A stretch of DNA of 61,871 nucleotides, filler included, from Theionarchaea archaeon (GTDB taxonomy: Archaea; Methanobacteriota_B; Thermococci; Methanofastidiosales; SZ-28-30), in assembly GCA_018992565.1 (NCBI GenBank). It is 4 parts of 4 records of this genome, joined end to end, with 100 filler letters (N's around TTAATTAATTAA, not from the genome) between each part and the next. Parts side by side here need not be neighbours in the genome. Positions count along the whole stretch, not along the records: positions 1 to 25,518 come from JACVGW010000033.1; 3 more parts are not named here. One strand, given 5' to 3'. Below, in pieces: positions 1 to 9,000 of the stretch. The number at the start of each line of letters is the position of its first letter. Position 1 is the stretch's first letter. The position numbers were made by a program.

Positions 1-3000
1 TCTGCAGATACATCGCCTGCTCAAGTCCATTGCTGCCAGAACAGGAGTATCTGAAGGTGACATTAACAGAATACTCAGCCTTGCCCGGGTCATGAATAAG
101 ACCTGCCTGTGCCCTCTGGGCCAGTCTGTTATAATGCCTCTGCAGTCAGGCTTGAACCTTGAGGTGGTATAGTGCGGGTGGAGATCACCGTCGACGGGAG
201 CCCCATGCAGCTGACCAAGGGGGAAAATCTGTTGTCTGAGCTGCGTTCTTCTGGGATTGACGTGCCTGGGCTCTGTTACTACGAAAAAGTGTCTCCTACC
301 GGGTGTTGCCGCCTGTGTTCTATCAAAGACACGAAGACTGGCAAGGTGGAGATGGCATGCACCTTAACTGTGTGTGAAGGGATGGATATTCAGGTCTTCA
401 CTTCAGAATTGGAGAGCTACCGAAAGGAGATTCTCCAGTTGATCCTTTCAGAACATGACCATGACTGCATGACCTGTGAAGCTGCTGGTGGCTGTGATCT
501 AGAGGACTTGGCATATCGATATGGCATTGATGCCTCCAGCGAAGTGTATCCCCCTTGTTACAAGGCATCGAGCGTTCATGAGACGCAGGTCCTCATGTTT
601 GATCCCAAGAAATGTATAAAGTGTTACAGATGCATAAAAGCTTGTGATGAACTCCAGGAAAAGCATGTGTTAGACATGGCTGAACGCGCCAGCTACATCA
701 TGGTCTGGCCTGGACATAACGGGATATGGAAAGAGAGCGTATGTGACGGTTGTGGTGAATGTATTCAGGCCTGTCCTGTTGGAGCCTTGTACGAAAGAGA
801 TGCAGTAAGAAAAGGGAGAACCTGGGAACTGACCAGTACAAACACGGTATGCGAATACTGCGGTGTGGGATGTTTAATTCAGGTGTACACTAAAGACAAC
901 CATGTTATTAAGGTCAAAGGCATAGATGGGCCAGCAAATAAAGGGAGATTATGTGTGAAGGGACGATTTGGGCATCAGTATCTCGAAAAAGATCGATTGA
1001 CGTCTCCTCTTATCAAGAAAAATGGCACATTTACAGAAGTCACATGGGATGAAGCTATTCAATATGTTGCTGACACATTCTCGAAGATATTGACCACACA
1101 TGGACCTCACGCACTGGGAGGACTGTCGTCAGCGCGGTGCACAAATGAAGAAAACTACCTCTTCCAGAAATTTGTGAGAGTCCTCTTCCAGAACAATAAT
1201 GTGGATCACTGTGCCCGTCTCTGCCATGCCTCTACTGTAGCAGGGTTGAGCAGAACATTCGGCTCGGGTGCAATGACCAATTCCATTGCTGAGCTCGCTG
1301 ATAGTGACTGCATCTTCGTCATAGGTTCAAATACCACGGAGACCCACCCCGTCATTGCTACCTTTATCAGAAATGCAGTCCGAAAAGGGGCTGCTCTCAT
1401 TGTAGCAGACCCTCGAACCATAGACCTGGCTTCATCTGCTCATGTCCATCTCCAGCACAAGAACGGCACTGATGTAGCACTGCTCAATGGTATAATGAAT
1501 TACATATATATACAGGGGCTACACAACCAGGATTTTATAGAAGCCCGCACAGAAGGATTTTCTGATTTCATAACCGTAGTAAAAGAGTACACCCCTGAAA
1601 GGGTGGAAGACGTTACTGGAGTTCCCACAGAGAAGATACAGGAGGCTGCCCGCCTTTTCGGTCAGGCTGAGAAAGCGTCTATTGTATTCTCCATGGGGAT
1701 AACCCAGCATACCACGGGCACTGATAATGTGGTATCCCTCGCTAATCTGGCCATGCTTACAGGGAATGTGGGCAGGCCCTCTACTGGAGTCAACCCTCTC
1801 AGGGGTCAGGGAAATGTGCAGGGAGCCTGTGACCTAGGTGCTCTATCTGCTGTATACCCCGGCTATCAACCAGTTGCAGATCCTGAAATAAGGAAGCAGT
1901 TCGAAGTTGCCTGGGGTGTTGCCCTGCCAGACACGCCGGGGCTGACTGTCGTTGAGATGATAAACAAGGCAGCACTGGGTGAAATCAAGGGGATGTATAT
2001 CATGGGGGAAAATCCCATGGTTTCAGATCCCAATGGTAACCATGTGGAGAAAGCGTTGAATAACCTAGATTTTTTAGTAGTGCAGGATATTTTCATGACA
2101 GAGACTGCTTTGATGGCAGATGTAGTGCTTCCTTCACAGGCAGCACTGGAAAAAGAGGGTACATTCACCAATACTGAGAGACGCATCCAGGCAGGAAGAA
2201 GAGTGGTGGAACCGCCTCTCAATACAAAGGCCGACTGGGAAATCATTGGGTTACTTGCAGAAAAAATGGGATACCCTATGAAATATGAAGCAGTCTGGGA
2301 CATTCTGAGAGAGATCAACCAGGTAACGCCGATCTACAGAGGAATTACCCCCAGCAGGGTTGCAGAAGGCCTTCAATGGCCATGTCCTTCTGAAGATCAT
2401 CCTGGAACGCCCTACCTGCACAGCGGAACGTTTTCCAGGGGAAGCGGGTTGTTCTCCCCTGTTGACTTCATACCACCTGCAGAGTGTCCTGATGAAGAGT
2501 ATCCCTTCGTGCTGTCAACAGGTAGAATTCTCTATCATTATCACACGGGAACAATGTCCCGGAAAGTGGAAGCATTGAACTCCTTTGTCAATGAAGGGTT
2601 TGTGGAGATTGCTCCTCAGGACGCACATACCCTCAATATAAAGCATAATGACCATGTGGAAGTTGCCACCAGAAGAGGAAAGATCATAGTAAGAGCTCAT
2701 GTCTCTGAGAGGGTAGCTCCACGGTCTGTGTTTATCCCCTTTCACTTCAGCGAGGCACCAGCCAACAGGCTCACCAATGATGCTCTGGATCCTGAAGCTA
2801 TGATTCCGGAGCTCAAGGTGTGTGCATGTGCCATCACAAAGCTGGACATGACTACATCACAGAAGGAGGGAGAAAAATGAACACAAAAAGTAAACGAGAC
2901 GCGAACCATGAAAATCCGTTAAGAATAGCATCAAAGAAAGATTTTATGGCCCTGGTGGATTCACTCATAGAAGATGGATCTCTGGAAGTCCATGGCGTAA

Positions 3001-6000: not shown

Positions 6001-9000
6001 ACTCATCCCGATGCTGTTCTAAAGATCATTGCTTTGCATCGACTGGCCAATGAGATGTCAGATCTCCTCTGTGGTAGAACGACACATCCTATTACTCTGA
6101 TGGTGGGTGGATTTACCAGTACACCTTCAGAGAGAGAACTTTCCTCCTTGAGAGACAGATTATCTAACATTCTCCCCGTGTGCGACGAAGTCAATCAATT
6201 ATTGCTGGACAACGTGCACATGCTCCCTGATTTTACCAGAGAAACAGAGTACATAGGACTAACCAGTGATACAGAGTATGCCCTCTATGACGGAGTCATT
6301 GGTTCCACTGACACGGGTACTCACCCTGTAGAAGACTACGAATCTATTGCCAACGAGTATGTTGTGCCCTATTCTACAGCGAAATTTGCCAGCCATGCAC
6401 GGGAATCCTATATGGTGGGAGCTCTGGCCCGGTTCAACCTCAATGCTGAGAAATTAACCTCAGGAGCCAGAGCATGGGCACAGAAGTTCGGATTGAGCCC
6501 CATCAGCTACAATCCCTTCATGAATAATGTTGCCCAGCTGATCGAGTACTACCACTCTGTAGAGGATTCCATAGCATTGATAGACACAATCCTGAACAAA
6601 GGATTGAAGAACGAGACACCCAGCTACGCGGTGAAAGCAGGACGCGGTGTTGGAGCTGTTGAAGTTCCTCGCGGGATCTTATTCCATGACTACACGTACA
6701 ATGACAAGGGATTCTGCACCAGAGCCAACTGTGTCATACCCACAAACCAGAATCACAAGAACATCAACCTGGATCTGGAAGCTCTTGCTCCCACTCTCCT
6801 GGGGTTAGCAGAAAAAGAAATCGAGCTGAATCTGGAAATGCTGGTCAGAGCCTACGATCCCTGCATATCGTGTTCAACTCATTATCTCACTGTGGAATTC
6901 ACATGAAGGGTTCCCACCCTTTTTTCCTTCTCTTTTTTGGTTGGATTTACACATGGACTTCCTGTACGAGTACAGATTCTTAACAGATTGATAAGTCCTG
7001 GTCCTTCTTCCAAACCTTTATTTTTGTAGTGGCTTTATGACAGGTAATGAATCCAGAAAAGGATGAACTACATGAGGCAGCTGCTATTGCAGTCATCACT
7101 ATTGGCAATGAACTCATGGGAGATGATGGTGCAGGCCCTGCTGTTTTTGAGGCTCTCCGGAAAGAACCACTGCCTCCTGGCGTTGATGTAATTGATGGGG
7201 GAACTGGGGGGATGTCCCTCTTACATGTAATAAAGGACTATCCCCATGTTATCCTTGTCGATTGTGCAGATTTTGGAGGAAATCCTGGAGAAGTCAAAGT
7301 ATTTGTGCCGGAGGAAGTGAGATCGCTAAAGGAGATCGAGTATTCGCTACATCAACTGGACCTTCTGGAGGTTATTGCTCTCTCCCAGAGAATTGGAGAA
7401 GCACCACGTACAATTCACATCGTTGCTGTTCAGCCAGAAAGAATAGAACCTGCTACAACACTGACAAGAAAAGTCTCTGCTGCCCTTCCACTGATGGTGA
7501 AGGAGGTGCTAAAGCAGATCATGAAAATGACTCAATAACGCAGCCAAAATTCATCCTACATGTCAGAGAATTTCGGGCTTCACGTTGTTTGCCAGCATTC
7601 TACTGTTAATCTTCTTCCCCAAATTCTCGTTGCCGCTTCTTTTGTTCATTAGCGTCCCGCAATAGGGCTGCAACATATTCCCTCGTTTCCAGACTTTCCA
7701 TCCAGATTGTTGGTAGTGTTGGTAGTGACCTTCTTCTCAACGCACCCACCTCCACAAGATTCTACAAAATCGCTTACAAGGCTTGCCATTTCAACATGAC
7801 TTTACACATATATATTCTGCGTATGGAATGTATATAGCTCGCATGTCATCTATATAGAACGAGAATTTGAGTTTTTAATATCCTCTTCTTCCATCATTCT
7901 GCAGGAGCCTGTCCTGCCAGGTATTCCTACTGCATCAGCCCTGCATTGGATGCACAACCTGAACTGGGGAAGTATCTTTTCACATCGTGCCCTGGTGGAC
8001 CTGAGCTCTTCACACGTGGGAGCCAGAACATGGGAATAACCAGCCAGTGGAATTAAGGGGATAATATTTTGCATACAAGCGCCTCTCTCCTTTGACTGGA
8101 CAGCCACATCTTCCATTCCTTTTGAAGTAACACCGGGGATGAGTACTGAATTCACTTTGACTCGCATTCCCAACTCAACGCAGGCTTCAATTCCTCTCAA
8201 CTGGCATGAGATAAACTGTTCTGCTACTTTTTCTGGAGGTTCTCCCATGATATGCAGATACACTTCTGGGATAGTCTCTGCTTTCACAGTATTAATTGTT
8301 ACTGTGACCGTTTTCACTCCCAACTGGGCAAGAAGCTCAGCCTTATCAGGCAGCAACAGTCCATTGGTGGCAACGCAAAGAATGAGACGGGGAAACCTTT
8401 CGTTTACCAAATCAAGTGTTTCAAATGTGTCTTGGTTGTACAATGGTTCGCCAGGCCCCGCAATGCCTGCTACCTTCATTGCAGGATTCATGTAGAAGGC
8501 AACTCTCTCAACTGCTTCATGAGGAGTCAATATTCTTTCAGCCACACCGGGCCTGCATCCATGATATGAAACTCCAACCTGACGTGAGCAATACCTGCAG
8601 GAAATATTGCACGCTTCTGCCACAGGGAGGTGGATTCTCCCATACAGAAAGTGTGCTTTTTCATCAAAACAGGGGTGGTCCAGCATCACGCATACTACTG
8701 CGACTGAAGTTAATAAAGGTGAGGAAGCACAGGCAATTCAGAAAAAGGTGAAAAAAAAGAGAGTCTTCTAGCTTCTGAAAGAACTGATGGCATGTTTTAT
8801 TGCTTTACTGGCAAAGAGGGCTTCACACACTATCCCCAGCAGCAAAATCTCTACTGCCCCCTTAACCAGGATCCCTTCCACCACAGGCATGGGCAAGAAA
8901 TAAGGAATACCCACAATTCCCATGGTAACCAGTGTAAACGCCGCTTCAGGGATCCAGCCAGCCAGAGCTGTAGGGACAATTCGTGGTATTCTCCTGTTTC

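Follow-up and report, generated by a model that had tools for sequence, protein, structure and literature searches.

A formate dehydrogenase and a group 3b [NiFe]-hydrogenase predicted from one gene array of a Theionarchaeal genome

Layout of the locus

The window, i.e., the whole stretch of 61,871 nucleotides (filler included) analyzed from the genome of an uncultured sediment archaeon, carries at positions 2-7538 an array that begins on the minus strand of another contig (C57). The gene order is nuoE-nuoF-fdhA-betagamma-small-large, followed by hycI:

C57:1150-1629, minus strand: nuoE-like gene (PF01257)
C57:3-1190, minus strand: part of nuoF (PF01512, SLBB, PF10589)
2..172, plus strand: 3' end of the nuoF-like gene, 56 codons (PF10589 NADH_4Fe-4S), the remainder being on C57
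172..2880, plus strand: fdhA, 902 aa, GTG start (TIGR01591, Pfam domains, FdsA-type PDB matches)
2877..4838, plus strand: fused beta-gamma diaphorase, 653 aa (Pfam, NCBIfam, PDB 9nez)
4835..5617, plus strand: [NiFe]-hydrogenase small (delta) subunit, 260 aa (PF01058; HydD/ShyD)
5614..6906, plus strand: [NiFe]-hydrogenase large (alpha) subunit, 430 aa, group 3b (PF00374, ShyA, PDB, tree)
6907..7046, plus strand: 140-nt spacer from the large-subunit stop to hycI (sequence read)
7047..7538, plus strand: hycI, a HycI/HybD-family maturation endopeptidase, 163 aa (PF01750, TIGR00072)

Open reading frames and searches of Pfam and NCBIfam agree with the genes, coordinates and domains given in a first-pass annotation, which had also proposed a single operon cut by a contig break. 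Three observations bear this proposal out: C57:1-99 (minus strand) is 100% identical to C104:1-99, the match being exact only at 99 bp when overlap lengths of 90 to 139 were tried; all seven genes stand uninterrupted in a congener (locus L006; identities of 100/96/86/84/88/88/73%, within the 73-100% reported earlier), where NuoF measures 420 aa; and an independent contig of 10,522 bases (run X20) is collinear with L006 5405-8400, from nuoE into fdhA, spanning the break site.

Re-reading the sequence and coordinates returned the same spacings as before: -1 for nuoF/fdhA (TAGTG at 170-174), -4 for fdhA/betagamma (ATGA at 2877-2880), and -4 and -4 for betagamma/small and small/large. The betagamma reading frame spans 2820-4838, and its ATG at 2877, which yields the 653-aa product, stands behind a GGAGG-like site, so that the ribosome-binding site falls inside fdhA. 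The more likely start of nuoF is an in-frame ATG at C57:1154, overlapping nuoE by 8 nt. Between nuoE and the large-subunit gene, stop and start codons overlap at each junction, and this is kept in a second species; however, the earlier statement that they overlap throughout fails for hycI, which follows a 140-nt gap. A T-rich tract lies in this spacer directly 3' of the large-subunit stop, and a TATA-like TTTATTTTT box lies ~25 nt 5' of the hycI ATG; the spacer may hold a terminator and a separate promoter, in which case hycI would have its own transcript. Genes 3' of hycI are on the opposite strand. The operon would thus comprise six genes, nuoE to large, with hycI behind them, and is predicted to express together two soluble enzymes, each of them complete.

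Divergent from the operon are genes for NuoE, a NuoF::GltD fusion, a HoxU-like protein, a glutamate-synthase-like protein and glutamate dehydrogenase.

Subunits of the two halves

FdhA, previously described as NuoG-type with an active-site cysteine, is by its sequence a NuoG-fused (FdsA-type) formate dehydrogenase alpha subunit. It scores 864 bits against TIGR01591 (cut-off 666), matches the FdsA-type PDB chains 9wxb_B, 6tg9_A and 7e5z_A over its full length, and combines [2Fe-2S], His-ligated [4Fe-4S], 2x[4Fe-4S], Molybdop_Fe4S4 and Mo/W-bisPGD domains (Pfam). The active site reads Cys351-His352, and C351/H352, R544 and the cluster cysteines are invariant across 33 homologues. This FdhA is the sole copy in the genome. 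Assignment of its neighbors as NuoE-like and NuoF-like flavoprotein subunits holds by PF01257, PF01512, SLBB, PF10589 and NF010120, the last matched by the intact 420-aa orthologue of L006 at 396 bits (cut-off 389).

In the PDB, NuoF is matched best by HydB chains of bifurcating hydrogenases (7t2r_B, 391 bits; 7q4v_B, 389 bits), and bifurcating complexes linked to formate dehydrogenase exist, both of which would suit a Bfu-type (HydABC/HytA-E) bifurcating or confurcating enzyme whose NuoEF links NAD and ferredoxin simultaneously to formate or H2. However, Pfam finds only Complex1_51K, SLBB and NADH_4Fe-4S domains in NuoF, and the 420-aa protein, as long as Nqo1/NuoF, aligns solely to residues ~115-511 of the 597-599-aa HydB chains; it therefore lacks the N- and C-terminal cluster domains of HydB, which bifurcation would require, and we regard such an enzyme as highly improbable. 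The likeness to HytA-E/FdhA claimed at first extends to the pairing of formate dehydrogenase with hydrogenase genes, but not to the minimal NuoF, which is without the extra cluster domains of HydB/HytB.

In the hydrogenase half, the fused 653-aa betagamma subunit recognized earlier consists of a beta part (N-terminal domain and Fer4_22) and a gamma part (FAD_binding_6, NAD_binding_1 and the [2Fe-2S] domain DHODB_Fe-S_bind), with NCBIfam matches to HydG/ShyC and ShyB/HydB and PDB matches to 9nez_B (residues 48-343) and 9nez_C (residues 390-649). Its beta/gamma region is the sole copy in the genome, and its N-terminal extension of roughly 14 residues is present too in some homologues without a link to formate dehydrogenase. 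The small subunit (PF01058; best NCBIfam match HydD/ShyD) keeps its cluster cysteines, as do 27 homologues. The large subunit (PF00374) matches ShyA at 264 bits, against 157 for VhuA and 137 for FrhA, has PDB matches to 5yxy (198 bits) and 9nez (189 bits), and retains the motifs RICGICSIGH and DPCISCSTH and a 7-residue tail. In a tree it falls with group 3b enzymes, so that tree, best hits and subunit make-up all uphold the original assignment to cytosolic group 3b; the HycI-type protease is likewise sound (PF01750, 108 bits; TIGR00072, 146 bits, cut-off 47). The large subunit is nested within a Thermoplasmatota clade (SH-aLRT 98, 97, 99), and the hydrogenase cassette was therefore probably acquired laterally and added to a pre-existing nuoEF-fdhA unit.

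Distribution and interpretation of the joint arrangement

Among the loci and genomes compared, the joint arrangement was found only in this genome (G000) and in G001; outside the genus, 80 beta relatives and 80 FdhA relatives all lack it, in line with the rarity noted at the outset. Each half is also found separately: fdhA is missing from 12 of 13 loci with the betagamma-small-large(-hycI) cassette and from all 80 further loci, and in 43 of 80 FdhA loci NuoF adjoins fdhA while a 3b hydrogenase is absent. In congener G002, nuoF-fdhA-focA is present and a 3b large subunit is absent (best match, 32%); a formate transporter gene intervenes between fdhA and the MvhD-like gene said to follow NuoF-FdhA. 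On a metagenome contig (L217), the start of a beta-like gene lies behind fdhA-focA, and in five bacterial loci (L042, L180, L187, L188, L215) short FdhA genes have beta/gamma homologues as their immediate neighbors.

The lateral origin of the cassette and its occurrence behind fdhA in only two genomes would be expected had it landed there by chance, leaving the two enzymes functionally unlinked. We consider this unlikely: the 4-nt ATGA overlap at the junction, whose ribosome-binding site lies within fdhA, has persisted in two species that share 86% identity in FdhA, and the couples on which both enzymes act are of low potential, involve a single redox step and are commonly linked.

We favor, with about an even chance of its being right, two complete, co-expressed enzymes that form a cytosolic formate/H2/NAD(P)H redox valve and require no stable supercomplex. 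Formate would be oxidized at the Cys-ligated pterin center of a NuoEF/FdsGBA-type Mo- or W-dependent formate dehydrogenase, whose five FdhA Fe-S clusters would pass electrons to NuoE/NuoF, where FMN would reduce NAD+, or the reverse. In the hydrogenase, electrons would run from the NiFe site through three small-subunit clusters, the beta clusters and the gamma [2Fe-2S] cluster to FAD and NAD(P)+/NAD(P)H. Coupled via the pyridine-nucleotide pool, the two enzymes would equilibrate formate/CO2, H2/H+ and NAD(P)H/NAD(P)+ in the cytosol, most likely letting a fermenting sediment archaeon dispose of reductant in the form of H2 and formate, or take it up; fermentative potential is cited for Theionarchaea in a review (PMC12806544). 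Judged by its domains, each half is complete, its subunits correspond one by one to those of solved enzymes, and each occurs alone in other genomes; the overlapping stop and start codons kept in two species argue for co-expression, and the nearby NuoE, NuoF::GltD, HoxU-like and glutamate genes would fit NAD(P)H turnover.

Coupling through a pool has its difficulties. Formate/CO2 and H+/H2 lie ~100 mV below NAD(P)+/NAD(P)H. If electrons passed through free nucleotides, this ~100 mV would be wasted and H2 or formate could be released only while product levels stayed very low; wiring the two sites directly by Fe-S clusters would serve better. NAD is the cofactor of FdsGBA-type enzymes. Characterized 3b enzymes prefer NADP (PMC7325909), and a shared pool is therefore not assured. 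The ATGA translational coupling of fdhA and betagamma is, moreover, what would be expected within one complex.

Such a complex, a soluble [NiFe] counterpart of HDCR or HytA-E/FdhA, would unite NuoE, NuoF, FdhA, betagamma, small and large, with Fe-S clusters wiring the formate and NiFe sites and with FMN (NuoF) and FAD (gamma) giving lateral access to NAD(H) and NADP(H). It would gain the thermodynamic advantage of the wire and accounts for the overlaps conserved from nuoE to large in a second species. The five bacterial loci, which lack hydrogenase and NuoEF, suggest that beta can directly partner an FdhA; an FDH-beta link recurs within the lineage at L217; NuoEFG-type modules on group 3 [NiFe] dimers have been solved (7t2r, 5xf9); and at L008 and L046 the C-terminal part of a NuoG-like conduit resembles small-subunit residues 165-260, the conduit's partner being a large subunit that shares 63-67% identity with the present one. 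However, contact between the halves is drawn from gene arrangement and analogy, both halves are autonomous elsewhere, the Theionarchaeal proteins hold no extra domain or linker beyond the short betagamma extension, the cassette looks like a recent lateral arrival, and no FdhA-beta fusion was found among longer proteins, itself a weak indication. We therefore hold one physical complex to be possible but doubtful, and do not follow the first-pass annotation in joining all seven products into one. With two separate enzymes, too, the rare pairing suggests joint interconversion of formate, hydrogen and NAD(P)H.

Comparison with known systems

The first half resembles FdsGBA(D) of Rhodobacter capsulatus and Cupriavidus necator and FoDH1 of Methylobacterium extorquens in its NuoE-like, NuoF-like and NuoG-fused Mo/W alpha subunits, FdhA residues 3-889 aligning to chains of 6tg9, 9wxb and 7e5z at 685-709 bits, and such neighborhoods are common, as the 43 of 80 FdhA loci attest. 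Unlike FdsB (500-520 aa), the present NuoF is shorter, aligning from FdsB residue ~105-108, and the operon continues into a hydrogenase. The second half follows Pyrococcus furiosus SHI (9nez), Thermococcus kodakarensis Hyh (5yxy) and SHII in its beta-gamma-delta-alpha order and HycI-type protease. These Thermococcales enzymes give the best family and PDB hits and form the sister clade in the tree, their large subunits being 29-34% identical to the present one. In contrast to these, beta and gamma are fused here, as in 53 other stop-free loci checked, the large subunit belongs to a broad Thermoplasmatota/Bathyarchaeia/Chloroflexota clade, and the gene set stands behind a formate dehydrogenase.

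At the five bacterial loci (L042 being from a Thermodesulfovibrio MAG), Fer4_22 beta and FAD/NAD/[2Fe-2S] gamma homologues likewise lie beside FdhA, which is 50-52% identical over residues ~219-890 but lacks the NuoG-like N-terminus; beta is only 26-32% identical. FdhA of L042 has an in-frame stop at what is probably the position of a selenocysteine codon, and no name for this three-gene FdhA-beta-gamma type was found in the literature searched. HDCR (7qv7) and acetogen HytA-E/FdhA also pair a soluble formate dehydrogenase with a hydrogenase, here a candidate pairing from genes alone, and HDCR FdhF matches FdhA residues 224-897 at 691 bits. Those systems use [FeFe]-hydrogenases, and HDCR also has small ferredoxin-like connectors and filaments, whereas the present operon encodes a [NiFe] group 3b enzyme, two flavin diaphorases and no connector subunit.

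Greening et al. 2024 (PMC11216029) describe hybrid [FeFe]/[NiFe] 'group F' complexes of archaea; these, like the bifurcating Acetomicrobium mobile enzyme NiFe-HydABCSL (7t2r), share with the present locus NuoE/NuoF/NuoG-like modules together with a group 3 [NiFe] dimer. In the hybrids at L008 and L046, the related large subunit lies directly upstream of a betagamma cassette; however, the second catalytic module of the hybrids is an [FeFe] domain rather than a formate dehydrogenase, their NuoF carries a fused GltD-like domain, and their small subunit is split and fused.

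Operon structure and the contig join

In the Theionarchaea archaeon (G000), the genes for a formate dehydrogenase (nuoE, nuoF and fdhA) are followed by those for a fused beta-gamma diaphorase (betagamma), the small and large subunits of a [NiFe]-hydrogenase and a HycI-type protease. The window comprises more than one contig and 264 N, and the operon analysis was confined to positions 1-25518, which correspond to contig C104 of a 2.8-Mb genome in 154 contigs (88% complete).

Operon genes on C104 (window coordinates, strand, product)
2-172, +, last 56 codons of the NuoF-like gene
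172-2880, +, fdhA, 902 aa
2877-4838, +, beta-gamma fusion, 653 aa, ATG start
4835-5617, +, [NiFe] small subunit
5614-6906, +, [NiFe] large subunit
7047-7538, +, HycI-type protease, 140 nt after the large subunit

Successive genes from nuoF through fdhA, betagamma and the small subunit to the large subunit overlap by 1, 4, 4 and 4 nt, and the ATG of betagamma is preceded by a GGAGG-like site within the 3' end of fdhA. Because the genes that lie 3' of hycI (radical SAM, ECF S-component and aldehyde dehydrogenase) are on the opposite strand, the unit ends at hycI. A TTTATATA box about 100 nt 5' of nuoE is a putative promoter element, and the 140 nt ahead of hycI contain a T-tract, possibly a terminator, and a TTTATTTTT box, possibly a promoter.

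The first-pass annotation had joined C104 to C57, the contig that carries nuoE and most of nuoF, and this join is real: positions 1-99 of C104 overlap exactly with positions 1-99 of C57 (minus strand), on which the remainder of nuoF and then nuoE follow, and a congener locus (L006) holds all seven genes unbroken, with identical overlaps and a NuoF of 420 aa. Moreover, a contig of 10,522 bases from metagenome run X20 is collinear with L006 5405-8400 from nuoE into fdhA and spans the break position, the bridging consisting of three collinear pieces of one record, with no single alignment covering the full 3-kb stretch. The start of nuoF is most likely the in-frame ATG at C57:1154, with an 8-nt overlap with the nuoE stop. 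Independent assemblies of four runs end at differing sites in the 3' part of nuoF (L006 ~6900-7225, corresponding to window 1-99), and the contig break is probably an assembly effect of strain variation (microdiversity).

Divergent from nuoE, C57 (L005) encodes at 2582-9936 (+) a second NuoE (160 aa), a NuoF::GltD-like fusion (1090 aa; Complex1_51K, NADH_4Fe-4S, Fer4_20 and Pyr_redox_2 domains), a HoxU-like Fe-S protein (236 aa), a Glu_synthase-domain protein (533 aa) and a glutamate dehydrogenase. L006 has the same module (93-100% identity). It resembles an NAD(P)H-linked glutamate-synthase-like complex, consistent with a region that serves to turn over NAD(P)H as part of amino-acid metabolism.

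The formate dehydrogenase and the hydrogenase

FdhA combines a NuoG-like Fe-S N-terminus with a Mo/W-bisPGD formate dehydrogenase domain (Pfam), matches equivalog model TIGR01591 at 864 bits (cut-off 666) and aligns over its full length to the FdsA-type chains 9wxb_B, 6tg9_A and 7e5z_A. Its cluster cysteines, Cys351-His352 and Arg544 are unchanged across 33 aligned homologues; C351, H352 and R544 presumably have the catalytic roles of their counterparts in E. coli FdhF. NuoF (FMN, NADH, [4Fe-4S]) matches NF010120 at 396 bits (cut-off 389), and NuoE ([2Fe-2S]) matches PF01257 at 152 bits, its best NCBIfam model scoring 135.8 bits, slightly below the cut-off of 141. By sequence, the products of nuoE, nuoF and fdhA are thus a predicted NAD-linked formate dehydrogenase of the NuoEF/FdsGBA type.

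An electron-bifurcating enzyme is very unlikely in view of NuoF. This subunit is the minimal Nqo1-like form of 420 aa, aligned to only the core (~115-511) of HydB chains 7t2r_B and 7q4v_B, and Pfam found no Fer4 or additional 2Fe-2S domain in it, whereas the Bfu-type subunits of bifurcating enzymes (HydABC, NiFe-HydABCSL, HytA-E) carry extra cluster domains, namely an N-terminal [2Fe-2S] and a C-terminal 2x[4Fe-4S] domain.

The large subunits of [NiFe]-hydrogenases bind their metals through an N-terminal RxCGxCxxxH and a C-terminal DPCxxCxxH pattern. The G000 large subunit contains RICGICSIGH (61-70) and DPCISCSTH (414-422), followed by a 7-residue tail that is the predicted substrate of the protease. 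Encoded with this catalytic dimer are a beta part (AsrA/HydB-like, Fer4_22) and a gamma part (AsrB/HydG-like, FAD/NAD(P), [2Fe-2S]), which match the beta and gamma subunits of PfSHI (9nez_B, 9nez_C) and are joined in one 653-aa protein. In a tree of 102 large subunits, with rows labelled by NCBIfam and no bona fide HoxH among them, the G000 sequence falls within an 82-row clade, sister to Thermococcales SHI+SHII (HydA+ShyA; support 99), and VhuA-like (10 rows) and FrhA (2 rows) sequences lie apart. The comparison with group 3d is by PDB scores only (5xf9, 150 bits; 5yxy, 198 bits). Because of its tree position and its beta and gamma parts, we assign the enzyme as a predicted NAD(P)H-linked group 3b [NiFe]-hydrogenase, so that an assignment previously made from best hits is now backed by phylogeny, albeit in a tree lacking bona fide HoxH. 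Among the rows apart is a second [NiFe]-hydrogenase of G000 (contig C138, ~17677-24436), which is VhuA/MvhA-like (3c), with genes for a small subunit and for two MvhD-like proteins in its vicinity.

Since the Theionarchaeal large-subunit pair is nested among Thermoplasmatota sequences (supports 98, 97 and 99) and the large subunit is 29-34% identical to SHI/SHII of its own class, the 3b cassette, betagamma-small-large(-hycI), was most likely acquired by lateral transfer.

Occurrence of the pairing, and one complex or two enzymes

The component parts are of kinds already known; it is their pairing, fdhA with a 3b cassette, that is new and rare. Fusion of beta and gamma is frequent (53 stop-free loci), and 12 of 13 loci have the cassette but no fdhA; none of 80 further cassette loci has a same-strand upstream fdhA, one of them (L082) containing a divergent fdhA fragment. 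Full-length NuoG-fused FdhA is widespread, with at least 7996 proteins at E <= 1e-50 among 8000 scored and named matches of 55-59% identity in WOR-3, Aminicenantes, Bipolaricaulota and Acidobacteriota. At 80 FdhA loci (57 full length), NuoF adjoins fdhA in 43 and NuoE in 35, and a 3b small and large pair adjoins it in none. A literature search, with genome papers devoted to Theionarchaea outside its scope, turned up no account of fdhA and a 3b cassette in one operon.

Within a set of 41 related genomes, only the three of genus g1 encode a full-length FdhA, and in two of these (G000 and G001) it is part of the joint operon. The third, G002, encodes nuoF-fdhA-focA (L031 = G002:C123, 2948-7438) and then, about 350 nt beyond this formate/nitrite transporter gene, an MvhD-like protein, an Fe-S protein of 332 aa, and beta and gamma as separate proteins. 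No hydrogenase genes were seen in L031 up to the contig end, nor was a 3b large subunit found in G002, an 84%-complete genome whose closest match is 32% identical. G002-like metagenome contigs also have focA after fdhA, and in one (L217) a beta-like gene, 45% identical to the G000 beta, begins after focA and runs to the contig end. An 'FDH-type' clade of beta and gamma proteins cannot be claimed, because those of G002, Thermodesulfovibrio and G000 are about equally distant (beta 28-31%, gamma 38-45%).

The first-pass annotation proposed one soluble complex. All seven products may form a [NiFe]-hydrogenase/formate dehydrogenase supercomplex, a doubtful reading in which physical association is suggested by gene order. 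Its Fe-S chain, running through the NuoG-like FdhA N-terminus and beta, could conceivably join the formate and NiFe sites directly; FMN and FAD might, tentatively, form two distinct outlets to NAD(H) and NADP(H); and the whole would possibly be a nucleotide-gated [NiFe] analogue of HDCR, in which an archaeon combines a bacterial-type FDH module with a Thermoplasmatota-type 3b hydrogenase. Such an assembly is favored by the translational coupling of the genes, by the thermodynamic gain expected from direct wiring, and by two kinds of loci elsewhere. In five bacterial loci that lack hydrogenase and NuoEF, a short fdhA lies next to genes for homologues of beta and gamma. In the hybrid hydrogenase clusters of two archaeal MAGs (L008, L046), the NuoG-like conduit ends in a C-terminal part resembling a small subunit and works with a large subunit that is 63-67% identical to the G000 one. 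However, both halves are autonomous elsewhere, the 3b cassette is a recent addition, and the junction shows no new domain or fusion. A complex prediction with the beta part (1-375), the small subunit and FdhA 1-275, using their own alignments and leaving out the FdhA catalytic domain, scored 0.00 (mark 0.32), which counts neither for nor against contact. No fused (Rosetta-stone) protein related to betagamma was found at 1144-3265 aa and E <= 1e-10, which is weak evidence.

The evidence for and against a complex therefore sets our ratings: with moderate confidence, we favor a co-expressed pair of enzymes coupled via NAD(P)H, place the supercomplex behind it, regard it as improbable that the formate dehydrogenase and hydrogenase are unlinked neighbors, and rate bifurcation lowest.

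Comparison with known systems

The L008 (1348-8718) and L046 (~1205-6802) hybrid clusters, immediately upstream of a betagamma cassette, match the 'group F' hybrid hydrogenases described in PMC11216029. L008 encodes a 590-aa protein with a [NiFe] small-subunit domain and an [FeFe] H-cluster domain, and the clusters also contain NuoE, NuoF::GltD, the NuoG-like conduit and the large subunit, which belongs to the 3b clade. The C57 NuoE/NuoF::GltD/HoxU-like module is no more than 46-48% identical to the L008/L046 versions, and we therefore rejected the idea that it was transferred together with the hydrogenase genes. At L042 (8986-13024), L180, L187, L188 and L215, three genes encode a short FdhA, a beta (Fer4_22) and a gamma (FAD/NAD/[2Fe-2S]) protein, apparently a formate dehydrogenase served by a diaphorase of the sulfhydrogenase type, for which we found no name; the reading frame of the L042 fdhA is interrupted near 9388-9399 by a stop that may be a selenocysteine codon. 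In Bathyarchaeia (L077, L078, L079, L090), a NuoE-NuoF-HoxU-like-small-large cluster adjoins the 3b cassette; with its large subunit among the VhuA-like tree rows, it is a further NuoEF-wired group 3 hydrogenase.

Near-identical DNA occurs in sediment, mangrove and soil metagenome runs of seven studies. Whether or not a complex forms, the operon predicts that H2 and formate pass between these archaea and partners, which bears on carbon and electron flow in anoxic sediments; if a complex does form, it would show lateral recombination of modular redox cassettes in uncultured sediment archaea.

Unlike formate hydrogenlyase, whose membrane-bound [NiFe]-hydrogenase is of group 4, the G000 operon encodes a group 3 large subunit, and no membrane protein gene was found in it. 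Soluble enzymes for H2 + CO2 <-> formate are wanted for hydrogen storage and CO2 capture, and the known ones (HDCR, Hyt/Fdh) are built on [FeFe]-hydrogenases. The Fe_hyd_lg_C domain is absent from all seven G000 products (Pfam), and where HDCR and HytA-E-FdhA have an [FeFe]-hydrogenase, this operon has a [NiFe] enzyme; if the supercomplex exists, a [NiFe] group 3b version with built-in access to NAD(H) and NADP(H) would represent a new architecture.
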